Of a stretch of DNA of 37,268 bases, positions 2,816 through 36,289 are shown in pieces. The position numbers and the translations under genes are program-made. Under the pieces are notes generated by a model that was not told the DNA's origin, searched no databases, and worked only from the letters and a program-made list of their open reading frames with translations. The number at the start of each line of letters is the position of its first letter. Position 1 is the stretch's first letter. Origin of the DNA: Candidatus Udaeobacter sp. (GTDB lineage: Bacteria > Verrucomicrobiota > Verrucomicrobiia > Chthoniobacterales > UBA10450); the NCBI GenBank assembly GCA_036264275.1, contig DATARG010000164.1, positions 1-37,268 on the forward strand, written 5' to 3'.

Positions 2816-4833
2816 TCTTCGGCGAACTAAGGCGGCGCAACGTTTACAAAGTGGCGATCGCCTATGCCATGGCCGGCTGGGCGCTCTCTCAAGGAATCGC
2901 CCAGGTTTTTCCAGTGTTCGACGTTCCGAATTGGATCATCCGTTTGATCGTGTTGCTGATCATCATTGGATTACCGATTGCGCTTGTCCTGGCCTGGATG
3001 TTTGAGATCACGCCGCATGGAATCAAGCGCACTGAAACGGCCGACGCGATGCCGGCAACCTCGCGGCAAAATAAGCGCGCATGGATTTATGTGTTCGTCA
3101 TCGGCGGTCTTGCATCCATGGGCCTATTTTGTCTGGGCCGTTATACCGCGCCAAGCCTTTCGCCTCTACCCGCCAAGTCGATCGCGGTTCTCCCCTTCGA
3201 AAACCTGAGCGAAGACAAAGCGAACGCCTATTTCGCCGACGGCATCCAGGTGGAGATCCTGACGCGGCTGGCCAAAATCGCGGACTTGAAAGTGATCTCG
3301 CGCACTTCGACGCAGCAGTATCAGAGCAAACCGGCTGATCTTACCAAGATCGCGAAGCAGCTTGGCGTCGCGAACATTGTTGAAGGTAGCGTCCAAAAAA
3401 CAGCGGATCAGGTACGGGTCAATGTTCAGTTAGTCAATGTGCAAACGGACTCTGAGCTCTGGGCGGAAACCTACGATCGAAAGTTGACTGACATCTTTAG
3501 CGTGGAGAGTGACATCGCCAAACGAATCGCAGGATCCTTGCAAGCGAAGCTGAGCGGCCATGAGGAGCAAGCGTTGGCTGCCGCGCCGACGAACAATCCG
3601 AAAGCTTACGACGCGTATTTACGTGGGTTGCATTTTGAAGCTCTCAGCAACTACATGAGCGATGCGCTATTCAAAGCCATCGATTTTTATGGGCTGGCGG
3701 TCCAACTTGACCCAAATTTTGCGCTCGCTTGGGCGCGACTGTCAGGTGCGCATGCGCTTGTGTACTTTCTGCGCAACGATACTACTGCCGCTCGCCGCGA
3801 TGCAGCTAAAACAGCTTTGGACCATGCGCTGAAACTGCAGCCAGACTCACCCGAAACCCTGCTATTTTTGGGTTATTATCAATACTGGGTCTTGCGCGAT
3901 TATGGTCTGGCCAAAAGCACTTTCGAGCGTGTCAGCAAGATGTTGCCAGGCCGGAGCGAAGTTTTGTACGCCCTCGGCGCAGTTGCTGGACGCGAAGGAA
4001 ATTGGGATCAAAGCATTGCTTACTGGGAGCGCGCCCTGGCGCTCGATCCTCGGAATCCGGCGTTATTGGCTGAAGTGGCAGTTGCTTACGCGATGGTTCG
4101 ACAGTTCCCGGCCGCGCTAAAGCTCTACGACCAGGCACTGGATATCCTCCCTAACGAGCCGTCTACGATGGCGTTAAAGGCCAGCATCTACCAGGCGGAA
4201 GGTAACCTGCAAGAGGCTGCCAACGCGCTGATCCAAGTAAACGCAGAAACGCAATCCAACACGGCTGTTCGAATCAAGTTTACCCAATTGAGACTTGAAC
4301 GAGATTTCGCTGAGAGCAATCAACTCGTGCAGGTGCGACAGGCTAAACTGCGATTTACCGCCGGCATTGACAAGGGTGTCAAGGAGGTGGGGATCGCATT
4401 GTACCAACATCTGACTGGTGACACCGCTCATGCAAAAGTGACTGCTGAACAGGCGCGGAACACACTCCAGCCACTTGGCAAGGACCAACCGGACAACGCT
4501 TTCATCGCGGCCGCGCTGGCGGTAGCTGATGCCATACTTGGCGAAAAGGCGTCCGCCATCGACGAAGCGCAACGTGCAGTTGCGCTTTTGCCCAGTAGCA
4601 AAGATCGAGTGTCCGGGCCAGGCTTTGAAGAGAACCTGGCGCTAGTCGACATGATGATTGGCAAGAATAGTCGTGCGATATCAATTCTTACACAGTTGTT
4701 ACAAACGCCGTATGGCGGCTGGCTCTATAGCCCGTGCCCCATCACGCCAGCTCTGTTAAGGCTCGATCCAATCTGGGATCCTTTGCGCGCCAATCCGGCC
4801 TTTCGAAAACTCTACGACCAAAAGCAGCCTTGA
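2782..4833 (+). CDS. membrane-anchored TPR-repeat protein with TolB-N-like domain
   Basis: 683-aa ORF. N-terminal RRRNVYKVAIAYAMAGWAL plus TM helices, then SIAVLPFENLSEDKANAYFADGIQVEILTRL (TolB-N/CsgG-like module), then repeated TPR-like A..Y..AL.LDP segments. Confidence 0.7.
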   Translation: MAEDQEVNPKTFFGELRRRNVYKVAIAYAMAGWALSQGIAQVFPVFDVPNWIIRLIVLLIIIGLPIALVLAWMFEITPHGIKRTETADAMPATSRQNKRAWIYVFVIGGLASMGLFCLGRYTAPSLSPLPAKSIAVLPFENLSEDKANAYFADGIQVEILTRLAKIADLKVISRTSTQQYQSKPADLTKIAKQLGVANIVEGSVQKTADQVRVNVQLVNVQTDSELWAETYDRKLTDIFSVESDIAKRIAGSLQAKLSGHEEQALAAAPTNNPKAYDAYLRGLHFEALSNYMSDALFKAIDFYGLAVQLDPNFALAWARLSGAHALVYFLRNDTTAARRDAAKTALDHALKLQPDSPETLLFLGYYQYWVLRDYGLAKSTFERVSKMLPGRSEVLYALGAVAGREGNWDQSIAYWERALALDPRNPALLAEVAVAYAMVRQFPAALKLYDQALDILPNEPSTMALKASIYQAEGNLQEAANALIQVNAETQSNTAVRIKFTQLRLERDFAESNQLVQVRQAKLRFTAGIDKGVKEVGIALYQHLTGDTAHAKVTAEQARNTLQPLGKDQPDNAFIAAALAVADAILGEKASAIDEAQRAVALLPSSKDRVSGPGFEENLALVDMMIGKNSRAISILTQLLQTPYGGWLYSPCPITPALLRLDPIWDPLRANPAFRKLYDQKQP

Positions 4834-8708: not shown

Positions 8709-9652
8709 TTGGATCACTCAACCTGGAAAAGATCCGCGCAGCGCATGAACGGATTCGCCCATACATTCATCGCACACCCATCCTGACGAATTCATGGCTG
8801 AACGACGCGTGCAGTGCGTCATTGTTCTTTAAGTGCGAAAATTTTCAGAAGATCGGTGCCTTCAAGGCACGAGGAGCAACCAATGCCGTTTTTGCGCTTG
8901 ATGACGAAACTGCGCGATTCGGCGTGGCAACGCATTCTTCCGGTAACCATGGCGCTGCGGTTGCGCGCGCGGCGAAATTGCGGGACATTGCGGCGCACAT
9001 CGTGATGCCCTCAAATTCGGCGAAGGTGAAGATCCGCGCAGTGGAGAGCTATGGGGCGCAGGTTGTCTTTTGCGAACCAACAGAGCAGTCGCGGGAGATC
9101 AGATGCGCAGAGGTGATCGACCGAACTGGCGCGACGTTGATTCACTCATTCGAAAATGAGCACGTGATAGCGGGGCAGGGGACAGCGGCGATGGAGTTGC
9201 TGGAAGATATTGCCGATCTTGATGTGATCATGTGCCCCGTGGGCGGTGGCGGTTTGCTTTCGGGTACAGCGATCGCCGCGAAATCGATGCGGCCACAGAT
9301 AAAAGTGATCGCGGTTGAGCCTGAGAATGCTGATGATGCGGCGCAATCTTTTCGTGCAGGCCGACGGCTCGTCACTGAAAAGAAGTTCACCATCGCCGAT
9401 GGTCTGCGCACGAACGTTGGCGAACCAAACTTTGCGATCATTCAGCAATATGTGGACGACATTGTGACCGTAAGCGAGGAAGGAATCGTTTCAGCAATGC
9501 GCGCGATTTGGGAGACTATGAAGATCGTTATTGAACCGTCCGCTGCAGTGCCATATGCGACGATTCAAGAATCGAAGATGGATGTTAGTAATCAAAGTGT
9601 CGGTATCATTCTGACGGGCGGCAACGTAGATCTGGATGCGCTCCCTTGGTAA
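8696..9652 (+). CDS. PLP-dependent threonine/serine dehydratase or serine racemase-like enzyme (fold type II)
   Basis: 318-aa ORF with PLP-lysine motif FKCENFQKIGAFKARGA and glycine loop PVGGGGLLSG. Confidence 0.85.
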   Translation: MVELVGSLNLEKIRAAHERIRPYIHRTPILTNSWLNDACSASLFFKCENFQKIGAFKARGATNAVFALDDETARFGVATHSSGNHGAAVARAAKLRDIAAHIVMPSNSAKVKIRAVESYGAQVVFCEPTEQSREIRCAEVIDRTGATLIHSFENEHVIAGQGTAAMELLEDIADLDVIMCPVGGGGLLSGTAIAAKSMRPQIKVIAVEPENADDAAQSFRAGRRLVTEKKFTIADGLRTNVGEPNFAIIQQYVDDIVTVSEEGIVSAMRAIWETMKIVIEPSAAVPYATIQESKMDVSNQSVGIILTGGNVDLDALPW

Positions 9653-9797: not shown

Positions 9798-12199
9798 CAA
9801 AAATCAGTCGACGCCCAGAATTTTGCGAAAGCTCGGGGCCAGCTTCTGTCTGTAACACTGGCGCGAGCAGACTTGGCCATGCGTTCGCGCAGCGCTCGAT
9901 TAGTGACGAGTGTTCCGATCGCGCGTTTAAAGTCTTCGACGTCATGTGCTCTGGTGATCAGACCGTTTGCCTTGTCCACAACCAATTCTTTGGGACCACC
10001 AGAATCGGAAACCACAACTGGCAATCCGGATGCCTGTGCTTCGAGAATTACGTTGCCAAACGTGTCGGTGGTGCTGGGAAAAACAAAAATATCCGCCGAC
10101 GCATATGCGGCAGCTAATTCCTTCCCTTTTAGGTAACCGGTAAAAAACGCCTGGGGCAAAGACTTCGCGAGCGCTTCGGAATACGGGCCATGACCGACGA
10201 CAAAAAGTTGAACAGGAGCGCCTTCCTTGCGCAGACGGCGATAAGCGTCAGCCAAAAGGTCGAGATCTTTTTCTCGTGAAATGCGGCCGACATAGAGCAG
10301 GCGAACCTCGCCGTTCGATGCGCCGAATTTTTCAAAAAACGCGGGATTGCGTCGAGCGGGGTGGAACAGTTCGGTGTCGAGGCCGCGCGGCAAGATGTTC
10401 AGTTTTGCTGGGTCGAATCCCCGTTTAATCCAGCTTTGCCTGTACTCTTCGGAATTCACGAAAACAGTATCGAGCTGCCCATAGAACCAGTGCATGTAAC
10501 GCCATGTGACGCTTTCAAGAAAACTGTCCTCAGTCAGGATCCGAATGTATTGTGGGAAATCGGTGTGATAGATGCCACTGGTTTGGAGGTTGAGCATTTT
10601 GGCCGCGAGCAACGCGGTCAAACCAACCGGGCCGGGCGTGCTGATGATGATCTCGGTGAACCGTTCCCGCTGGACATAATCAAGCATTTGTAGAATTGGG
10701 GGGAAACTCAGTTTTTGCAGTTCGTATTCAGGCAACTCAAACTCGCCAATTGGGGGAAAGTTTTTGATGGGGATATCGGAAAGTTGAAGCTTCTTCCTTG
10801 AAGCTACGACGACCAATTCCTTTCCGGCAGCGGCTCCGGCGCCAGTCATCTTGCGGATGGTAGTGGCTACGCCGTTCACATCCTCCAATGTATCGGTGAA
10901 CCAGGCGCGTTTAAGATTTTGTAACGCAATCGGAACTTCGCCGGTCAACTCCTGGAAAAGGTTCCGCAGCCATTTCCGAGAAGGCGCCTGACTGTGAAAG
11001 CCATAGATATATGGGGTCAGGATCACAAGGATTGGAGCAATCGCGCTGAGAGCCTGCATGCTCTCCACCATGTTTCCGTTACTGATTTGTTGGATGAATT
11101 TGTTGAAGAACCGAAACGCCAGCTGCTCGGCGACCATGTTCGCCATAAAAAATGTCCGCCGCTCCGGTTCGCTCACCTTGTCTAGTTGCGTGGCTAGTCT
11201 TGCCTTCACCTCCGGTCGTGCGAAATAACCGGACAGCTCTTTCCACAGCGAGACGTTTGCGGGCTTTGCGAAATCAAAAATCTTTCCTGACAAAACACCC
11301 TGGACGATGAATTCGGTTTTCTCCTTCAGCGTGAACTCGGTTGGGTCACGGCCCTCCATGAAACGTGAGAACATTTTCTCTAGCAACACCCCACCGGGGC
11401 CGAGCTTTTCTTGGAAACGGTCCTGGATAAAGCACGCGACGGTGTTGTAAAAACCATGCGATAAAATCAGCGGCGTTCCGCCCTGGCCGCATGGTGTGCA
11501 GTCACCATTCCGAACGAATTTTAAGAATCGTTCCGCGGATTTGGTGGCGGGCGTTTCTGTAAAAGCCGAGGCCGCGAACTGTCCTCCGTGATCGTCCGAG
11601 CCGGCCACCAGTATTTTTCTCCATGGCTCCGCATGTGTGGGCGCGACACCGTGACGAGCGGCAAATAAGTCAATCTTCTCCGGCGTTAATTGATTAAAAA
11701 GAGTTTGAGCCAGATCGCTCAGAAGCGCGTCACGCAAACCATTGACGCCTTCGAAATGTCTGAACAGAAGAATTAGCTGCTCGAGGTGCATTGCCTCGAG
11801 TTTGCCGTTCACACTGTATAACGGATGCGCGACAGCGTGAGCGATTTGCCCGCGCTGGAGGTACCGCTGTAGATCAAAAATGTTTTCGCGGACGCTTTCG
11901 ATATCGCGATGTTGCCGTTCTGAAATCCCCCACACTAAAATGTGCAGCTTGCAGGCGTCGTGCGGAAAATATGTGGTGACCTGTTCGCTAATGAAGGTTC
12001 GGGGCAGGTGCGCAATTTCCAGACAACCATCGATCGAATCGTGATCGGTGATGGTAACGTAATCCATCCCACGTTTGCGCAGTTGGTAATACAACTTCTT
12101 TGGATCGGAATAGCTGTCGGGAAAATCGAAGCGGCGGAAGAGCCATTCTTCCGAGCGCGCACTGTGGCGCGAGTGGATATGTAAATCGCATCTGCTCAC
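9797..12199 (-). CDS. PHP-domain phosphoesterase fused to a GT4 (group 1) glycosyltransferase
   Basis: 800-aa ORF. The N-terminus has PHP metal ligands CDLHIHSRHS, TITDHDS, AHPLY and GSDDHG. The C-terminal ~360 aa is GT-B/GT4-like (FVFPSTTDTFGNVILEAQASGLPVVVSDSGGPKELV). About 220 aa of unassigned linker lies between them. Confidence 0.85.
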   Translation of the reverse strand: MSRCDLHIHSRHSARSEEWLFRRFDFPDSYSDPKKLYYQLRKRGMDYVTITDHDSIDGCLEIAHLPRTFISEQVTTYFPHDACKLHILVWGISERQHRDIESVRENIFDLQRYLQRGQIAHAVAHPLYSVNGKLEAMHLEQLILLFRHFEGVNGLRDALLSDLAQTLFNQLTPEKIDLFAARHGVAPTHAEPWRKILVAGSDDHGGQFAASAFTETPATKSAERFLKFVRNGDCTPCGQGGTPLILSHGFYNTVACFIQDRFQEKLGPGGVLLEKMFSRFMEGRDPTEFTLKEKTEFIVQGVLSGKIFDFAKPANVSLWKELSGYFARPEVKARLATQLDKVSEPERRTFFMANMVAEQLAFRFFNKFIQQISNGNMVESMQALSAIAPILVILTPYIYGFHSQAPSRKWLRNLFQELTGEVPIALQNLKRAWFTDTLEDVNGVATTIRKMTGAGAAAGKELVVVASRKKLQLSDIPIKNFPPIGEFELPEYELQKLSFPPILQMLDYVQRERFTEIIISTPGPVGLTALLAAKMLNLQTSGIYHTDFPQYIRILTEDSFLESVTWRYMHWFYGQLDTVFVNSEEYRQSWIKRGFDPAKLNILPRGLDTELFHPARRNPAFFEKFGASNGEVRLLYVGRISREKDLDLLADAYRRLRKEGAPVQLFVVGHGPYSEALAKSLPQAFFTGYLKGKELAAAYASADIFVFPSTTDTFGNVILEAQASGLPVVVSDSGGPKELVVDKANGLITRAHDVEDFKRAIGTLVTNRALRERMAKSARASVTDRSWPRAFAKFWASTDF

Positions 12200-19107: not shown

Positions 19108-19896
19108 ATGAAACACTTTGTAATTTGGCTGTTGTTCGTTGCGAGCTCGGTGCTTGGAGCTGAAGAGGTCAAAGATTTCGGCCGTGACCGGCTTAACAGC
19201 TCGCCTCGACATGGGGAGTGGGTTGATATCAAAACCGGTCAGCGAACAGTTAAAGCGTTCGTTGTTTACCCCGAGAGCAAAGACAAAGCGCCAGCGGTGC
19301 TGGTAATCAGCGAAATTTTCGGCCTGACAGATTGGGTCCGCAGTCTCTGCGATCAATTGGCCGAGAATGGCGTCATTGCCGTGGCGCCAGATCTACTTAC
19401 CGGGCAAAAATTCGAAGACGTCGATGCTGCGCGCAAAGCAATCTCGGCCTTGCCACAAGAGCATGTAAAGGGCGATCTCGACGCAACATCAGATTATGTG
19501 TTGACGAAAATTCCGTCGTGCAACGGTACGCTCGCAGTGTGCGGCTTCTGCTGGGGCGGGGGAGTCACGTTCGCGTACGCGAATGAAAATCCGAAACTGA
19601 AAGCTGCGTATTCATTTTACGGTGTGGCGGCGGATTCGGCAGACAAAGTGAAAAACATTGCGTGCCCAGTCTATGGTTTTTATGCCGAGAACGATGAACG
19701 CGTAGATGCAACCGTTCCGAAGGCCGAAGAGTTAATGAAAGCCGCCGGGAAAAAGTATGAGCCGGTGATTTACAAGGGCGCTGGCCACGGTTTTATGCGC
19801 TCCGGCGAACCAACCAATCCTGCCGTTCGCGAAGCCGACCGAAAAGCCCGCGACGAAACGTGGGTTCGCTGGAAACATTTACTAAAACAATTGTGA
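19108..19896 (+). CDS. dienelactone hydrolase family protein (secreted)
   Basis: 262-aa ORF with a signal peptide, nucleophile motif CGFCWGGG and histidine motif GAGHGF. Confidence 0.85.
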   Translation: MKHFVIWLLFVASSVLGAEEVKDFGRDRLNSSPRHGEWVDIKTGQRTVKAFVVYPESKDKAPAVLVISEIFGLTDWVRSLCDQLAENGVIAVAPDLLTGQKFEDVDAARKAISALPQEHVKGDLDATSDYVLTKIPSCNGTLAVCGFCWGGGVTFAYANENPKLKAAYSFYGVAADSADKVKNIACPVYGFYAENDERVDATVPKAEELMKAAGKKYEPVIYKGAGHGFMRSGEPTNPAVREADRKARDETWVRWKHLLKQL

Positions 19897-19934
19897 CCGA
19901 ATTAGACCCGAAAATTGGGTCGAATTCGTTAGGC
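19897..19934 (+). repeat. truncated attC or attI-type junction forming the left boundary of the array
   Basis: Short hairpin CGAATT-AGACCC-gaaaatt-GGGTC-GAATTCG ending in GTTAGGC (19928-19934). TTAGGC is the exact complement of GCCTAA at attC1. No convincing R'' box is present. Confidence 0.35.
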
Positions 19935-19936
19935 GT

Positions 19937-20389
19937 ATGAAACACGCGCTCCTCCTTCTGGCTCTTGTGCCGACAGTGGGTTTTGCCCGGCGCGCCCGAT
20001 AAACCAGTGAAGACCGCCGGCCAACAGGCTTACGGCGCGCTGAAGAAAGCAGAAGCGCCCTACATTGCGAAGGCACGCGCGACATATCCCGCCGCGAAGA
20101 AGCGCTATCTGGCTGGCCTGCCACCAAGTATCAATTTGAGGTTCGCAAGCGGCTAACGGATTCGGACGGCGGCGCCTTCGAAGAGGTCTTCGTTGAAGTC
20201 GAGGCCGTCAAAGATGGAAAAGTCTACGGTCGCATCGGTAGCGAGTTGGGTGCGGTCCGGTCGTATCGTCAATGGCAGCGCATTTCGTTTCCTGAGTCGG
20301 ATGTTCTCGATTGCACCATTGTTCATCCAGACGGGCATGAGGAAGGCAATTATGTTGGGAAGTTCATCGACACATACAAGCCCGAATAG
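19937..20389 (+). pseudogene. DUF2314-like secreted protein, cassette 1, disrupted by two compensating frameshifts
   Basis: ATG 19937 gives the signal peptide MKHALLLLALVPTVGFA, then TAA at 20000. Protein-like reading continues in another frame (ORF 19965..20156: PGAPDKPVKTAGQQAY...AAKKRYLAGLPP). It returns to the first frame near 20120 (KYQFEVRKRLTDSDGGAFEEVFVEVEAVKDGKVYGRIG...GNYVGKFIDTYKPE, stop 20387-20389). Confidence 0.5.
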
Positions 20390-20511
20390 GCCTAACCAAG
20401 CGCTGGATCGAACCGCTGACCGGCGTGAAAATTGCTTTCGATGACTTCAACGCTGAAATCCGAAGCACAACTAGTTCTTATCACCGGTCGCTCAGCTTGG
20501 TCTCGTTAGCC
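20390..20511 (+). repeat. attC site 1
   Basis: GCCTAAC-CAAGCGCTGGATCGAAC ... GGTCGCTCAGCTTGGTCTC-GTTAGCC, 122 bp. It starts directly after the cassette-1 stop and ends 2 nt before the next ATG. Confidence 0.8.
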
Positions 20512-20513
20512 GT

Positions 20514-20792
20514 ATGAACCGCATTCGGGCTTTACTAGAACAGCTACGCGACGAGCTAAGCGATGGCAACGAGCACCGATTCGCGGGCGATGTTGACGCG
20601 GCGCTCGCTTCCTGTGATGCCACAGTGGCAGCTTTTGTTATGTCGGACGAGCTTTGGGGTGGTGCTGGTTCGATCGCCGACCAAGCATTGTGCGGGAGAT
20701 CACCCGCACGTCGCCAACTCGAGCAGTTGCTCATTGAGCTTGGACGCGAGCAAATGGCGAGAGGCTACAGAAACCCTCGGGCAGAAGTGTAG
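20514..20792 (+). CDS. hypothetical 92-aa cassette protein (possibly truncated)
   Basis: ATG lies 2 nt after attC1. The predicted soluble helical protein contains ELWGGAGSIADQA. After the TAG at 20790 the same frame stays open for 14 more codons to a TAA at 20835. 120 bp of apparently non-coding DNA follow. Confidence 0.55.
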   Translation: MNRIRALLEQLRDELSDGNEHRFAGDVDAALASCDATVAAFVMSDELWGGAGSIADQALCGRSPARRQLEQLLIELGREQMARGYRNPRAEV

Positions 20793-20911
20793 ACATCAGT
20801 CTTTAAAACCAGTCTGGTCAACTCAGCTCAGTAATGTTGGAGCGACGGTTGTGGTGATCTGTGTAATTGTCTTCCCGATTGCCTATCCTGGTATGCGATC
20901 ACACAAAAAAC

Positions 20912-21007
20912 ATCTGACCCATCGATGAAGCCGACGGCCCCATCGCGAAACAACTGCGATATGATCGCCATGACGCCCTGCCGTGGCTTATCCATGTCTC
21001 ATTAGAT
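20912..21007 (+). repeat. attC site 2, degenerate
   Basis: ATCTGAC-CCATCGATGAAGCCGAC ... CCGTGGCTTATCCATGTCTC-ATTAGAT, 96 bp. Inner arms are conserved, but AAC has become GAC and GTT has become ATT, so both conserved triplets are lost. Confidence 0.6.
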
Positions 21008-21061
21008 GATTGATGCGGAGCTGAATCGCTAGTAGAAAGAGCGGATTCACAAAAAACTTTG

Positions 21062-21559
21062 ATGAATGTGGAAACGATCAATGTCTGGGCGCAGCTAATC
21101 GCGTCGATCGGCGTCATCGTTTCCCTCTTTTATGTGGCGGCGCAGGTCCGGCAAAACACGCGCTCTTCACGCGCGGTTGTGGTCGATTCGCTTGCCAGAT
21201 CGATGCATGACCTTGCCATTCAGATGGCGCAAAATGACCAACTTTTGACGACTGCCAGCATGTTGAAAGACTGGAGCAACGCGTCGGAAATGGAGAGAGC
21301 GCGGTATGCATCTTTTATGCTGGGTTATTTCAAGCTATTCGAGAATGGATGGTTCCAGATGCGTCAAGGGACGCTCGAACGCGATCAATGGGAAGGGTAC
21401 GACGCATTCTTGCGCACGGTTTGGATGGTACCAACAGTCAAGACATGGTGGTCCATGAGGCGAACGTTCTTCGCGCCCGGATTTCGGAAGTACGTCGAGA
21501 ACCTCAAAGAAGCGCCCGGTGTCCCTTCACTCACTCAGCTTACGCGAACTGAAAAGTGA
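21062..21559 (+). CDS. uncharacterised N-terminally membrane-anchored protein, cassette 3 (paralogue A)
   Basis: 165 aa from ATG 21062 (the track begins at TTG 21059). One TM helix, WAQLIASIGVIVSLFYVAAQVRQNT, followed by a helical soluble domain. No family recognised. Confidence 0.75.
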   Translation: MNVETINVWAQLIASIGVIVSLFYVAAQVRQNTRSSRAVVVDSLARSMHDLAIQMAQNDQLLTTASMLKDWSNASEMERARYASFMLGYFKLFENGWFQMRQGTLERDQWEGYDAFLRTVWMVPTVKTWWSMRRTFFAPGFRKYVENLKEAPGVPSLTQLTRTEK

Positions 21560-21570
21560 TAACACAGAAC

Positions 21571-21678
21571 ATCTAACCAGGCGATGAAGCCAATCGCGGA
21601 CCGTCCGTAGGCGCAGTTTGTTCTGTTATGAATGTTACTCTCAATTCGCGCTGTGGCTGATCTTGAGTTTCGTTAGGT
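21571..21678 (+). repeat. attC site 3
   Basis: ATCTAAC-CAGGCGATGAAGCCAAT ... CTGTGGCTGATCTTGAGTTTC-GTTAGGT, 108 bp. Confidence 0.85.
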
Positions 21679-21697
21679 CTACAGAACGTTAAGACCG

Positions 21698-22165
21698 ATG
21701 TCGTTCGAACAAATATCCTATCTCGCACAAATTGTTGCCTCGGTGGCCGTGGTGGCTTCTTTGATCTTTGTTGCTTTACAGATCAAACAAAATACGGCCG
21801 CCCTCCAACGGAACGAACACAACTCCACCATGGAACAGTGGACTGTGATCCGCATGGCTATCGCGAAGCATCGCGACATCGCGGAGTTGATGACCTCCGG
21901 CCTTCATGGGGACAACCCGCTGGACGCAGCCGATCAGCTTCGATTGGAACAAATGTTGCAGGAAAACGCCTGGGCGGCCTTTCACATTTGGGACAGAACG
22001 CAGCGCGGAATCTTCCCGAAGGGGACTTTCGAAGAGACCGGTGGCGCACTCTTGGACACTTTGCTCAGAACGCCGGGTGGCGACACCCGGTGGCGCAAAG
22101 CCAAGCATATTGGCTTCCCTCCTGCGTTCGTCTCGGACGTGGACACCGCGCTCGGCAAGACCTAA
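21698..22165 (+). CDS. uncharacterised N-terminally membrane-anchored protein, cassette 4 (paralogue B)
   Basis: 155-aa ORF with TM helix LAQIVASVAVVASLIFVALQIKQNT, 13/26 identical to the cassette-3 anchor. The TAA stop is embedded in the ACCTAAC of attC4. Confidence 0.75.
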   Translation: MSFEQISYLAQIVASVAVVASLIFVALQIKQNTAALQRNEHNSTMEQWTVIRMAIAKHRDIAELMTSGLHGDNPLDAADQLRLEQMLQENAWAAFHIWDRTQRGIFPKGTFEETGGALLDTLLRTPGGDTRWRKAKHIGFPPAFVSDVDTALGKT

Positions 22166-22267
22166 CCAAGCGATGGAGCCAACAGCGAACCGTCCGTGTG
22201 CCCAGCTTTCTCTGTTTATGAACGCCACTTATAACTCGCGCGGTAGCTCATCTTGTTCTCGTTAGGC
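22160..22267 (+). repeat. attC site 4
   Basis: ACCTAAC-CAAGCGATGGAGCCAAC ... GCGGTAGCTCATCTTGTTCTC-GTTAGGC, 108 bp. Roughly three-quarters identical to attC3 by eye, including the central loop. Confidence 0.85.
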
Positions 22268-22293
22268 CTCGCGCGCACACTTCAGGAGACCTC

Positions 22294-22668
22294 ATGTTTG
22301 ACCACGTCAAATTCGGAGTCAGCAACTATGCCGCGAGCAAAGCGTTCTTCCTCAAGGCACTCGAACCTCTCGACGTATCTGTTGTCTCGGAGGGGGCGCC
22401 GACGTACGGCGTCGAGCTTAGCCCAAAGGGCAAGGCTTCATTGTGCCTTTACCAAACCGAGGAGAAGGCGGCGCATCTTCACTTGGCGTTCAGGGCCGAG
22501 AATCGCCAGCAAGTCGAAGCTTTCTATCGCGCGGCTCTGGAGGCGGGTGGCAAAGACAATGGTGCGCCTGGCCTGTGCCCGGAATACCACGCGAATTACT
22601 ATGCAGCTTTCGTCATCGATCCAGACGGGCACAACATCGAAGTGGTTTGCCACGAACCCGAGGCCTAA
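22294..22668 (+). CDS. VOC family (glyoxalase/bleomycin-resistance/dioxygenase fold) protein, cassette 5
   Basis: 124-aa ORF: MFDHVKFGVSN...HLHLAF...AAFVIDPDGHNIEVVCH. An AGGAGA RBS lies 6 nt upstream of the ATG. The TAA stop is embedded in the GCCTAAC of attC5. Confidence 0.8.
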   Translation: MFDHVKFGVSNYAASKAFFLKALEPLDVSVVSEGAPTYGVELSPKGKASLCLYQTEEKAAHLHLAFRAENRQQVEAFYRAALEAGGKDNGAPGLCPEYHANYYAAFVIDPDGHNIEVVCHEPEA

Positions 22669-22785
22669 CCAATCGATGGAGCCAACTCCGAAAGCGTTCG
22701 CGCGTAGGCTTGCCCATTTCATGGCGATACAACTTCAGCGTGTTTTCCACGACCCCGTGCCGTGGCTCATCTGTTCTCGTTAGAC
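22663..22785 (+). repeat. attC site 5 (last site of the array)
   Basis: GCCTAAC-CAATCGATGGAGCCAAC ... CCGTGGCTCATCTGTTCTC-GTTAGAC, 123 bp. Confidence 0.85.
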
Positions 22786-22865
22786 CCATGCAGCGCTTCG
22801 AATACGTGATCGCTGTATAATGGCAATTCTGGCATTCCGAGCACAGCCGAGAAGTCCGATTGCCG

Positions 22866-24274
22866 TTACCACCAATAGATCTGCCCAATCTTTCCATCGC
22901 TGTTTGTTGCGACAGAAAGCCAGTACCAATTTCCTCCAAGGGTCAGCTTGTATCGCCGAATTTCGCCGTCTCGTTTCTGCTCGCGGTCAGAGAAAACAAA
23001 CGAGCCTAACGCGCCATGCTCCGCGAACCATTGCCAGAACGCCTTGCTTGTCGCTGTGTTTAGAAACAGACGCATCGGCGCCCTAAATACCGCTGGTTCG
23101 TAATCGCCCTTCAACAACCCGGACACTATTTGCTTGGCTTTCGCCGTGGTCATCGGATCCGGATCAGATTTCGGTTCTGGCCGCTTCAAAATTGGCAAAC
23201 AGATGCCGGCGATATCGATAGCTAATTCATCGATGATCATGTCGCTATGATTCGTGAGAATGATGATTGTTAGTTTGTCATCGATGAATCGATAGATGAC
23301 TGACGAAAACCCCGGTGTTCCGCCGCTGTGCTGGACCAGACGATGGCCATGATAGCTGTCAACGAACCAGCCGAAGCCATAATTGAATGATGCGTCCGCG
23401 CCATCATTGGTTGCCGTGGCCGTCCAGATTTGATCGAGGCTGGACCTACTCAGCAATTTTTCACCCGAAAGCGCTGCGTCCCATTTCACCATATCCTCAA
23501 CGGTGGAAATAAGACTTCCCGCTGAGAACGCGATTGCTGGGAGGAGAATTGGCCGGTTCTCGAAACGATCGTTTTTCCATTCGTATCCTGAGGCGCGGTT
23601 CGGAACGAGCGGTTTCGGATCGGTGCTGCGTGTCGCCGCCATGCCAAGGGGCTTGAAGATGCGTTCGTCCACAAATTGCCAGTAAGATTTGCCGCTGACC
23701 TTCTCGATGATTATTCCAAGTAAATAATAACCGGTGTTATCGTACGCCCAGGTTTCGCCTGGTTGAAACTCAAGAGGCAATTTGAAAAACATCTTGAGCA
23801 GTTCATCGCGGGCCGGACTTGTTTCAAAGCCAAGGTCAGTTTTGAAAACGTCTAACCAGTGCGGAACGGCAACATGATTTTGAATTCCGGAGGTGTGAGT
23901 GAGCAGATGCCGAATTGTGATGTGCGCCACGCTTGTGGTGCTTCCGGAAAATATTCTGTGATGGGATCTTCAAGATGAAGCTTGCCGTTCTGAACCAGCA
24001 TCATGATCGCAGCGGCGGTAAACTGTTTGGTATTCGAGCCGATTTCATAAACCGTCTCTCTTGTCGCGTTCGCTCTTAACTCGAGATTCGCGAATCCGTA
24101 TCCCTGCGCTTTTGCGATTCGGCCGTCGCGAACAATCGCAAGCGAAAGGCCAGGGATATGCAACTGGCGCATCCGTGCCGAAACGTAATCGTCAATGTTG
24201 TCGGCTTTGGCAGAGATTGCCGCGCAAAAACCAATTAAAAGCGCGACAACGGCTGCACGGGACGCGACGGCCAT
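22866..24274 (-). pseudogene. serine hydrolase (class C beta-lactamase-related), split by one frameshift
   Basis: N-terminal ORF (23852..24370; likely ATG at 24274 with a signal peptide) carries SxxK (YEIGSNTKQF). C-terminal ORF (22866..23930) carries YxN (WAYDNTGYY). The reading frames meet at ...PEAPQAW / AHITIRHLLTHTSG around 23925-23933. Confidence 0.65.
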
Positions 24275-24284
24275 CTGAATCGAA

Positions 24285-26402
24285 TTACTGCCTGGCGCCT
24301 TGCAATTCGTCGGCGAGCGCGCCTGCATCGTAGACCTTTCGGAGCGCCTCAATAATCGCCGCGGAATCAACTGAAACCGCGCGGGCTTGCGTGTCCGTGA
24401 AAATGCAATCGTTCACCAGCGATTGAATGTTGCCGTCGAAAATAATGCCGACGAATTCGTTTGCCTTGTTCACCACCGGACTTCCGCTGTTGCCGCCAAT
24501 AATGTCAGCGTCGGAGACGAAATCGAATTTCGTCGGCAGATTAAGGATCGATTTTTTGTCGAGCCAGTGTTTCGGCAGATCAAATGGCGGCCGATTGTCG
24601 TGTTCGGTCGCTCGCTGATATAAACCGGCAAAATCGGTGAACGCAGGAATTTGTTTTCCGTCCTGCTCGTACCCGCGCACCGTTCCGTAGGAGAGCCGCA
24701 GGGTGAAAGTCGCATCGGGGTAACTGCTCGTGCCTTCAATGGCAAACCGCGCCTTCGCAATGTCTGCGTAGGCCTGTTTTTTGATTTCATCCTGCGCATT
24801 ATAAATCTTTCGCGTTTCTCTCGCTTGAGCATCAATCATGCGAGCGAGATCGATCATCGGATCGCGTGCGGCCTGTAGCGCAGCCGCATCCTTGCGGTAG
24901 AGATCTTTGCGGACAGTTGCGTCCTTGAGCTTTGTGCCAGTTACAAGCTCCACTGCACGCGCATGCGGCGACTTTCCAGTCAGCACTTTCTTCACCAACG
25001 GATTATCTGCGCCGAATGCCGTAGCAAAATCGGTCAGTGAATCCGTCAGTCGCAAGATCTCGTAATCGTCGTAGATCGGTTCGTCGGAAAACAGTTCCAG
25101 TTCCAGCGATTCGCGTGCGCTATCGCGAAACATCGGAATCCGTTCTCCGTTCGGTTTCGCGCGTTCATTGGCTGCTCGCAGAAGCACCCGCGCGTATTTG
25201 AAAAGATTGCCCGCTAATGCTCGCGGGCCGCGGTAGCCAACGCTGACCGGCCGTTCCTGCTCGACGTAATTGTATACTGGCGCGTTCTTCGCGATCTCAT
25301 CCTGAGCGCGTTTGATTCGGTCGTAAGCAGAAACTGTGGATTTGAATTTTGAATCGCGCGCAATCGCCTCCCGCAGTTTTCGTTCGCGCGCTTCTAACTC
25401 CGACCAGATTTGCGGATCAAGCAGTCCAGCCAGATAACCGTCGTAACGTTTCCGATTATTTTGCTCGCCAAACAAGTCCTCGCGCGCTGTGCGTGCGTTC
25501 TCGAATGAACGCCAGCTGTAGGTCGATTCCAGGACTTCGCGACGGTAAAACAAGCTCAGGACATAAGGCATATAGCGGTCGCGCATGTCGGCCATTTCAC
25601 CCAAAGTGAGTTGCCGATCGGTTTTGCCGGGGCTGCCGCTTACGAAGGTAAGTTCGCCGTCACCTGGCCCATTGGAATTGAATTTGAGAAAATGCTCGAT
25701 CTTCGCCGGCTGGCCATTTTCGTACACCCGAAAAAGACAGATATCGAGGTCGTACCGAGGATATTCGAAGTTGTCAGGATCACCGCCGAAAAAGGCCATT
25801 TGCTGCTCCGGCGCGAAGACCAGGCGCACGTCGTCATAACGTTTGTACCGATAAAGATGATAGGCACCGCCCTGGTATAATGTGACTACATCCGATCGCA
25901 ACCCGGTTTTATCTTTGCTTTCCTTTTCAATGGCAGCGATAGCGGCATTGCGCGCGCCGGAAGCCTGATCGCTTGTCATCCCTGGTTTAACCGCGCTGGT
26001 GACGCGCTCGGTTACATCCTCGATGGACATCAATACGTTCAGCTCCAGATCCGTGGACTTGATCTCATCGCCCTGCGTTTTCGCATAGAAACCGTCCCGG
26101 AGATAATTGTGCTCGGCGCTGCCAATCTTCTGCAAGGTGTCGGCGCCGACGTGATGATTTGTAATGACGAGCCCGTTCGGCGAAACGAAGGATCCGCTTC
26201 CGCCGGAGTTGAAGCGCACGCTGGCCTTTTGCAAATGTTCAAGCCACTGCGGCGACGGCTCGAACTGATATTTCTCTTTGAGTTGCTTCAGCGGCGGCGC
26301 GTTGAAAAGCCACATGCCTTCATCGGCAAATGCGGAGGCGGTCACTCCGACAACAAGGAGCAACAATGAGCAACTAAGCTGAAGGCGAAACGGCTTGTAC
26401 AT
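24285..26402 (-). CDS. S46 family peptidase (dipeptidyl-peptidase 7/11-like)
   Basis: Signal peptide from ATG 26402 (the track starts at GTG 26426). Mature N-terminus ADEGMWLF, catalytic His ITNHHVG and Ser GGNSGSPV. Confidence 0.88.
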   Translation of the reverse strand: MYKPFRLQLSCSLLLLVVGVTASAFADEGMWLFNAPPLKQLKEKYQFEPSPQWLEHLQKASVRFNSGGSGSFVSPNGLVITNHHVGADTLQKIGSAEHNYLRDGFYAKTQGDEIKSTDLELNVLMSIEDVTERVTSAVKPGMTSDQASGARNAAIAAIEKESKDKTGLRSDVVTLYQGGAYHLYRYKRYDDVRLVFAPEQQMAFFGGDPDNFEYPRYDLDICLFRVYENGQPAKIEHFLKFNSNGPGDGELTFVSGSPGKTDRQLTLGEMADMRDRYMPYVLSLFYRREVLESTYSWRSFENARTAREDLFGEQNNRKRYDGYLAGLLDPQIWSELEARERKLREAIARDSKFKSTVSAYDRIKRAQDEIAKNAPVYNYVEQERPVSVGYRGPRALAGNLFKYARVLLRAANERAKPNGERIPMFRDSARESLELELFSDEPIYDDYEILRLTDSLTDFATAFGADNPLVKKVLTGKSPHARAVELVTGTKLKDATVRKDLYRKDAAALQAARDPMIDLARMIDAQARETRKIYNAQDEIKKQAYADIAKARFAIEGTSSYPDATFTLRLSYGTVRGYEQDGKQIPAFTDFAGLYQRATEHDNRPPFDLPKHWLDKKSILNLPTKFDFVSDADIIGGNSGSPVVNKANEFVGIIFDGNIQSLVNDCIFTDTQARAVSVDSAAIIEALRKVYDAGALADELQGARQ

Positions 26403-36204: not shown

Positions 36205-36289
36205 CGGAGGGGGTGAGATTCGAACTCACGAGACCTTTCGGCCTTCCGGTTTTCAAGACCGGCGCGATCAACCGCTCTGCCACCCCTCC
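36205..36289 (-). tRNA. tRNA-Ser (anticodon UGA)
   Basis: Reverse strand: GGAGGGGTGGCAGAGCGGTTGATCGCGCCGGTCTTGAAAACCGGAAGGCCGAAAGGTCTCGTGAGTTCGAATCTCACCCCCTCCG. 7-bp acceptor stem, anticodon loop CTTGAAA, long variable arm, T arm GTGAG-TTCGAAT-CTCAC, discriminator G, no encoded CCA. Close to E. coli tRNA-Ser(UGA) as I recall it. Confidence 0.92.

Follow-up and report, generated by a model that had tools for sequence, protein, structure and literature searches.

A 37,268-nt window of DNA from Candidatus Udaeobacter (the whole stretch analysed here) carries, directly downstream of a dienelactone hydrolase (DLH) gene, five co-oriented attC sites set between open reading frames (ORFs), and we conclude that this region is almost certainly a genuine integron cassette array without an integrase, that is, a cluster of attC sites lacking integron-integrase (CALIN) as defined by IntegronFinder (PMC4889954, PMC9024848). 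The CALIN reading, which had already been put forward in an original prediction made from the window, follows from the attC architecture of the sites, the link of their family to integron integrases, covariation in the L boxes, the signature of cutting between G and TT (G|TT), the absence of an integrase from the window and the modularity of one cassette (cassette 4). Our account of how the integrase gene (intI) was lost, where the array came from and how it decays is one that we favour with distinctly less assurance, whereas the overall explanation, which joins identity to origin and decay and is weighted towards identity, is held with good confidence. The host is Ca. Udaeobacter (Chthoniobacterales, Verrucomicrobiota), with DLH relatives in Ca. 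Udaeobacter and other Chthoniobacterales metagenome-assembled genomes (MAGs), and the earlier guess at a non-proteobacterial soil lineage was right.

Five attC sites at the ends of co-oriented ORFs

On the forward strand, attC1 spans 20390-20511 (GCCTAAC..GTTAGCC), attC2 20912-21007 (ATCTGAC..ATTAGAT), attC3 21571-21678 (ATCTAAC..GTTAGGT), attC4 22160-22267 (ACCTAAC..GTTAGGC) and attC5 22663-22785 (GCCTAAC..GTTAGAC), exactly where the original prediction had placed them; their scores with R1, a covariance model built from these five window sites alone, are 98.4, 87.9, 106, 114.8 and 87.4 bits, respectively. The sites are 96-123 nt long, within the roughly 55-140 nt expected of attC, with conserved ends and a variable centre, and they follow one another at a spacing of 503-659 nt, a CALIN being defined by two or more attC sites separated by less than 4 kb. 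Each lies at the 3' end of an ORF and all units are co-oriented, the ORFs starting 2, 2, 54, 19 and 26 nt after the R' box; TAA stops lie inside the CTAAC of R'' at 22163-22165 (attC4) and 22666-22668 (attC5), and the description of starts 2-54 nt after GTTRRRY and of two stops within CTAAC was correct. The RYYYAAC (R'') and GTTRRRY (R') ends that had been ascribed to every site are matched in full by four of the five; attC2 deviates by one base in each box (ATCTGAC / ATTAGAT), and its R' is intact (GTTAGAT) in the near-identical strain contigs L001 and L167.

The layout of the sites is R'' (7 nt), a 5-nt spacer, a 9-nt L'' (GATGGAGCC), the variable centre, an 8-nt L' (GGCTCATC), an 8-nt spacer and R' (7 nt). 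L'' and L' pair in an 8-bp helix that leaves one base unpaired on the '' arm, and an unpaired spacer of 5 nt stands against one of 8 nt. An RNAalifold consensus independently recovers the same two helices, those of the R and L boxes, in agreement with the proposed pairing with one unpaired G and an unpaired spacer. No T-run of a terminator was found at the attC sites, and Rfam at gathering thresholds, a collection without an attC family, returned only a tRNA from the window.

An attC family linked to integron integrases

When both strands of the window were searched with R1, the five sites stood at 87-115 bits and the next best match at 9 bits, and the possibility that the sites are generic genome-wide repeats, which had been named as a ground for refutation, thus finds no copies outside the array in the window. 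The comparison set consisted of 80 related species representatives with 10 kb on each side of DLH, giving 1.18 Mb of DLH-neighbourhood loci, none of them from the window's own genome; besides the same-strain contig L001, R1 matched four times in this sequence, twice in L050 and once each in L019 and L066. Both L050 sites directly follow a 356-aa integron integrase ORF, which scores 446 bits against TIGR02249 (cut-off 265) and matches the Vibrio cholerae integrase VchIntIA (PDB 2A3V) over its full length (E 1.8e-82). With the L050 integrase as the query, a metagenome scan yielded 80 soil contigs (335 kb) encoding relatives at 61-89% identity, and in these R1 found 117 sites at 38 loci, co-oriented with and downstream of intI in 33 loci and divergent and upstream in the other five (5/38). 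Site lengths in the family peak at 96 and 123-124 nt. Sites of this family are ~90-fold commoner beside intI genes, in the 335 kb of soil contigs, than in the 1.18 Mb of DLH loci.

The model also aligns with a classical attC. On plasmid R100, the attC of aadA1 in In2 was the sole significant match of R1 in that integron, aligned box for box and with the bulge at the same position. This class 1 site shares with the window sites a 7-nt R'', a 5-nt spacer, a 9-nt L'' with an extra base, a variable tip, an 8-nt L', a spacer and an R' of the form GTTRRRY, whereas the window sites are longer (96-123 nt versus 60 nt), have a 3' spacer of 8 rather than 6 nt and carry G rather than C as the extra top-strand base. 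The aadA1 site scores only 24 bits with R1 and so belongs to a different attC family.

Pairing within the window's family is maintained through sequence change. Among 108 distinct members, 92.9% of pair cells hold standard pairs and 9 of 15 pairs change on both sides; free switching is seen at two covarying L-box pairs, 19-333 and 26-325, with AU 57 / CG 40 at one and CG 46 / GC 26 / UA 25 at the other. None of 500 shuffles reached the observed pairing values, and sliding the partners against each other destroys the pairing.

A second signature concerns the joints between cassettes. In the window, the TTRRRY upstream of a cassette is exactly complementary to the RYYYAA of that cassette's own 3' site at four of five junctions, as had been reported, the sole failure being cassette 2, which ends in attC2; within single sites, R'' and R' are exactly complementary in none of the five. 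Across the family, the two variable positions of R' in one site are exactly complementary to R'' of the next in 74 of 85 junctions, compared with 40/125 when R'' and R' of the same site are paired and 22.5/85 under permutation. Complementarity at 74/85 junctions is what the cutting of cassettes between G and TT would be expected to leave.

Two further loci carry traces that resemble this family. In L060 (4806-6769, minus strand), four right halves, each reading TCTCGTTAGRT after an L'-like GCTGATC, lie between small co-oriented ORFs; the left halves are unrecognisable, too diverged for R1, and a distant homologue of cassette 3 adjoins (3961-4308). The segment is probably a diverged or decayed cassette array that R1 missed. 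In L066 (4596-5152, minus strand), from another Chthoniobacterales genome, a single attC of the window family is followed by a VOC/glyoxalase gene without an attC of its own, 28% identical to cassette 5, and the pair sits between an oxidoreductase gene and fabG; it looks like a lone cassette remnant.

Cassette contents and the modularity of cassette 4

All cassettes lie on the forward strand. Cassette 1 (19929-20505, ending in attC1) is a frameshifted pseudogene: three-frame translation reveals a gene for a DUF2314-like secreted protein broken by two frameshifts, and the repaired product has a signal peptide and a weak DUF2314 match (E 0.016; 15.8 bits against a Pfam cut-off of 22). Cassette 2 (20506-21001, attC2) encodes a 92-aa ORF of no known family (20514-20792). 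Cassette 3 (21002-21672, attC3) and cassette 4 (21673-22261, attC4) encode predicted membrane proteins of 165 aa (21062-21559) and 155 aa (21698-22165), which have an N-terminal helix in common, and no Pfam or PADLOC match was found for cassettes 2-4. Cassette 5 (22262-22779, attC5) encodes a glyoxalase/VOC-family protein (22294-22668; PF00903, E 4.3e-10). In cassettes 4 and 5 the TAA stop is the one inside R''. After attC5, the stub of a sixth cassette (22780-22826) holds a 10-codon ORF whose ATG lies 2 nt past R', and then breaks off, with no further R1 match downstream. No resistance gene was found in the array.

The family of cassette 4 counts 2598 homologues. Copies of this cassette occur in three other, unrelated gene contexts (L162, L163 and L164) at 82-91% nucleotide and 84-90% protein identity; R1 matches flank the copy on both sides in L162 and L163 and lie upstream only in L164, and nucleotide homology ends at the cassette borders in L162 and L163. 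The presence of cassette 4 in other contexts, with homology that ends at its borders, implies that the unit has moved as a module.

One of these contexts contains a variant of the unit. At L162 8468-9005, a homologue of cassette 4 keeps only R'' and CAA of its attC and runs into a second ORF, with the next full attC at 8872-9005, an arrangement that reads as a two-gene cassette formed through loss of the internal attC.

A putative attI between DLH and the first cassette

The 38 nt at 19897-19934 (CCGAATTAGACCCGAAAATTGGGTCGAATTCGTTAGGC; forward strand), which abut the DLH stop, form an attI-like site with the structure CCGAATTAGAC-palindrome-GGTCGAATTC-GTTAGGC. They align along their full length with a conserved site downstream of intI in 13 complete integrons and with L019, and on this alignment we assign them as the attI of the matching integrase clade. 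The R box of the site occupies 19928-19934, and the crossover falls between G19928 and T19929. The clade form, found within ~110 nt after the intI match, is CCGAATTAGAC, a short palindrome, GTCYAATTCTC and GTTAGRY, in the order direct-repeat box, inverted L box and R box, an arrangement that presumably resembles the attI1 simple site plus accessory repeat. The attI motif occurs only three times in 1.2 Mb. A shorter box, (A/T)T(C/A)T(C/T)GTTAGRY, lies within 220 nt after intI in 60 of the 75 intI loci with enough sequence, whereas control sequence (2.35 Mb) holds only 10 copies of it. Compared with the consensus of the clade, the window site has a 2-nt deletion in AATTCTCGTTAG (AAT--TCGTTAG) and an L box changed from GTCTAA to GTCGAA, and both changes are common to all strain-level contigs.

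This site bears on the possibility that an integrase encoded elsewhere inserted the cassettes at a secondary, non-attI GTT site. Such insertion is a known route to a CALIN (PMC4889954), yet a secondary site would share only the GTT with the clade attI, whereas the 38 nt align along their length, including the direct-repeat box, the palindrome and the L box; we therefore judge this origin very improbable.

In L050, the clade site has a peculiarity of its own at 10106-10161: intI ends at a TAG within GTTAGGC, the R box of attI, and the C-terminus of the integrase is encoded by the attI palindrome; whatever cassette went in at G|TT would restore the intI stop.

Absence of an integrase and accessory status of the array

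No integrase or integrase remnant was found in the window, 19 kb upstream and 14 kb downstream of the array, by tblastn with the IntI of the clade at E up to 10. A complete integron has intI beside attI and the array; here the attI is present and DLH, a conserved core gene (19108-19896, forward strand; PF01738, E 1.2e-44), occupies the intI position directly upstream of it. A CALIN has no intI or intI pseudogene within 4-10 kb, and the window shows neither. It had been claimed that no tyrosine recombinase, attI or cassette promoter (Pc) was visible; this stands for the integrase and for the promoter, of which there is no candidate, and fails for the attI at 19897-19934, whose GTTAGGC at 19928 had in fact been used in the test of cassette junctions.

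The surroundings of the array are conserved. The gene order p16294-Ku-DoxX-DLH-(variable)-S46 peptidase-p26502 is kept in many of the 80 related loci, in accord with the claim that the array is embedded among core genes, and in the relatives inspected a convergent S46 gene or a beta-lactamase-family gene follows DLH after 42-582 bp. In 76 of the 80 related species representatives, no attC of the window family lies within 10 kb on either side of DLH. Since flanking synteny is conserved and these 76 species lack such sites near DLH, the array is an accessory insertion of ~2.9 kb in a core neighbourhood.

The right-hand edge of this insertion may also be discernible. At 22827-22853, 24 of 27 nt match L007 8418-8444, a stretch 11 nt after the DLH stop of L007 that belongs to one arm of a MITE-like (miniature inverted-repeat transposable element) palindrome. 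The match is weak (E 0.08) and its position consistent, and because the same palindrome fills the spacer after DLH in relatives, the remnant would mark the right-hand edge of the inserted segment. That palindrome (GTCATTCCGAGCGGAGTCGAGGAATCTCT ... AGAGATGTCTCGACTTCGCTCGACATGAC) occupies the post-DLH spacer in many relatives (L003, L007, L010, L027 and L074), and in most relatives inspected the DLH 3' spacer holds other repeats, namely MITE-like and REP-like (repetitive extragenic palindrome) palindromes. The recurrence of the MITE-like palindrome in many relatives marks the spacer downstream of DLH as a hot spot at which insertions of several kinds have occurred.

Variation among strains

Four contigs (L001, L166, L167 and L168), 98-99.6% identical to the window, cover the same locus. 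L166 covers the array from cassette 1 to the beginning of cassette 4, ordered as in the window. Of the two frameshifts in cassette 1, one is common to L001 and absent from L166, and the other is set by the length of a strain-variable GC tract at ~19988 (19985-19995), which is longer than in the window by 2 nt in L168 and by 4 nt in L001. Whether the signal peptide is read in frame with the DUF2314-like body depends on the length of this tract, and the variation could be slippage-type on/off variation or plain decay. L167 (1478/1479) lacks window positions 19966-20932, a 967-bp deletion that runs from within cassette 1, most of which is gone, through attC1 and cassette 2 into the first part of attC2. 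Neither end falls at G|TT, and it is an illegitimate deletion, not an integrase event. Among these near-identical strains we found no cassette-level reshuffling or excision, only indels and the one illegitimate deletion.

Origin and present state of the array

We propose the following history, of which the stages of loss and decay are the more tentative. Each unit is a promoterless ORF with its attC, whose bottom strand is predicted to fold into an R box of 7 bp, an unpaired spacer of 5 versus 8 nt, an L box of 8 bp with an extrahelical base, and a variable tip. The cassettes would have been inserted singly at attI by an integron integrase of the clade from Chthoniobacterales and soil metagenomes, cutting between G and TT. 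Most complete integrons of this clade have intI transcribed towards attI and the cassettes, and intI would have been lost here while attI was retained. If the cassettes are still transcribed, this would be by read-through from the DLH operon, which has the same orientation; the DLH gene is the likely source. With no integrase encoded in cis and its attI damaged, the array would be decaying. Signs of this are the frameshifts in cassette 1, the altered R boxes of attC2, the truncation of the sixth cassette and, at strain level, a deletion whose ends disregard the borders of the cassettes. An integrase provided in trans might still excise single cassettes.

Several observations weigh against this reading. 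The energy of whole-site bottom-strand folding is no better than that of shuffled sequence (z -2.2 to +1.2), the bulged base is a top-strand G (bottom-strand C) and not the bottom-strand G of aadA1, and across the attC family it varies between C, G and A rather than being fixed. Only the attI remnant points to the loss of intI, the window being free of an intI pseudogene; sigma-70 and terminator scans gave no more sites than shuffled sequence and no candidate Pc; and the window has its junction, and none of its cassettes, in common with the fairly distant L019, which is more readily explained by continued activity in trans than by decay alone.

The folding result also corrects a description. 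Minimum-free-energy folding is uninformative here because the site centres are unstructured; reliable pairing is restricted to the R and L boxes, and the term "imperfect palindrome", used in the original prediction, is borne out by those boxes and overstates the centres. Ordinary intergenic repeats (REP or MITE) or terminators would be compatible with such weak z-scores, and the same spacer in relatives does hold palindromes of both kinds. We give this explanation next to no credence, however, as ordinary repeats would have to be reconciled with the lack of any copy elsewhere in the 37 kb and with four matches (besides L001) in 1.18 Mb, two of which are beside intI, as well as with the ~90-fold enrichment beside intI, the covariation, the circle signature and the missing terminator T-run.

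The junction in L019, a second Udaeobacter-like MAG, raises a different possibility. As in the window, the DLH stop is followed by 5 nt and attI, here intact; the DLH genes are ~72% identical in nucleotides, and L019 has two different cassettes, both of which pass the junction test. In the window and L019 alike, the first cassette has an R'' that matches the TTRRRY following the attI crossover. The DLH-attI junction is common to only these two related species in the sample, and closer relatives of each are without a DLH-adjacent site. Recent recombination as the source of the common junction was considered and rejected, the 3' ends of the DLH genes being no more alike than the rest of the gene. 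The pattern fits one old junction followed by many losses, and one old junction would imply that cassette content changed after the integrase was lost, which would require an integrase in trans.

The attI beside DLH could then be a docking site with no integrase of its own, which some Ca. Udaeobacter lineages have kept and at which an IntI encoded elsewhere in the genome still inserts and removes cassettes, with the DLH operon as promoter. In its favour are the junction shared between genes that show no excess 3' similarity and are followed by entirely different cassettes, the match between TTRRRY and the R'' of the first cassette in both species, as IntI recombination produces, and the existence of integrases of the matching clade in the same order (for example in L050). 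Were it true, a housekeeping operon rather than an integron promoter would drive cassette expression, and cassette turnover after the intI-less junction had formed would explain why the window and L019 share a junction and no cassette. We consider it, the chief alternative as regards present activity, unlikely in view of the 2-nt deletion and changed L box of the window attI in all four strain-level contigs, strain variation made up of frameshifts and a 967-bp deletion that is not at G|TT, and closer relatives that are without the site.

Loss of intI with subsequent decay, which we favour, must also be set beside a split integron, in which the cognate intI is still in the genome and a rearrangement moved attI and the array beside DLH. 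This is among the listed routes to a CALIN (Cury et al., PMC4889954) and would leave attI in place, as is seen. The breakpoint, however, is no more than 5 nt from the left edge of attI and is the same in two distant species, which argues for a single old event and against a recent rearrangement, and no insertion sequence (IS) or transposase lies beside the array in the window; we regard a split as improbable.

Relation to known integrons

Ca. Udaeobacter is among the most abundant soil bacteria. To our knowledge, the hosts of most soil integron cassettes are unknown. The locus and its relatives provide, for Chthoniobacterales, an attC family (96 and ~123 nt), a conserved attI and a matching integrase clade, with which soil cassettes of the window type become assignable to a host lineage and CALINs that bear an attI become separable from insertions at secondary sites. 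Soil is known to hold very large numbers of integron cassettes (PMC8618304). Our literature search found no description of integrons in Ca. Udaeobacter; integrons have already been reported in Verrucomicrobia (PMC4889954). No new mechanism comes with the locus, and no resistance gene either. As a CALIN it is of a familiar type, here in a soil lineage that is abundant and has been little studied, with the attI remnant and the integrase clade as useful extras.

CALINs are common, with 279 recorded by Cury et al. in 2016 (PMC4889954) and 2961 in RefSeq in 2022 (PMC9024848). The window array, with five cassettes, is of typical CALIN size, chromosomal, mostly of unknown function and without resistance genes. 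It differs in that its attI is recognisable and retained, a point that normally is not assessable because attI is unknown for most integrons. Treponema phagedenis keeps attC at a syntenic locus after loss of intI, and Treponema integrons have a co-oriented intI layout (Wu et al. 2013, PMC3607928), that of an "inverted integrase group" (PMC3575428). The complete integrons of the window's clade likewise have intI directed towards attI and cassettes, an "atypical" layout; the two cases differ in phylum and attC family, and in the window the integrase-less junction abuts a core gene. As for the synaptic complex of VchIntIA with the Vibrio cholerae repeat (VCR) in PDB 2A3V, the likeness is the full-length match of the L050 integrase, from which a folded bottom-strand mechanism with extrahelical bases would be expected, whereas the window itself encodes no integrase.

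Neighbouring features

Within the window, a Ku homologue (PF02735; 17705-18547, forward strand) lies three genes upstream of the array, and a tRNA gene is found at 36205-36289 (minus strand); neither has an apparent connection to the array. In two relatives (L002 10800-11350 and L012 10790-11350), the DLH-S46 spacer contains a 151-aa ORF between inverted GTAGGGACG...CGTCCCTAC palindromes; the ORF has weak similarity to IS200-like Y1 transposases (20.2 bits, below the cut-off of 23) and looks like a REP-associated transposase with its REPs. Downstream of the array, a convergent beta-lactamase-family gene (PF00144; 22866-24370, minus strand) is broken into two ORFs (22866-23930 and 23852-24370) that overlap and lie in different frames. 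Both halves are in one frame in L005, and the window copy is a frameshift pseudogene or an assembly error.

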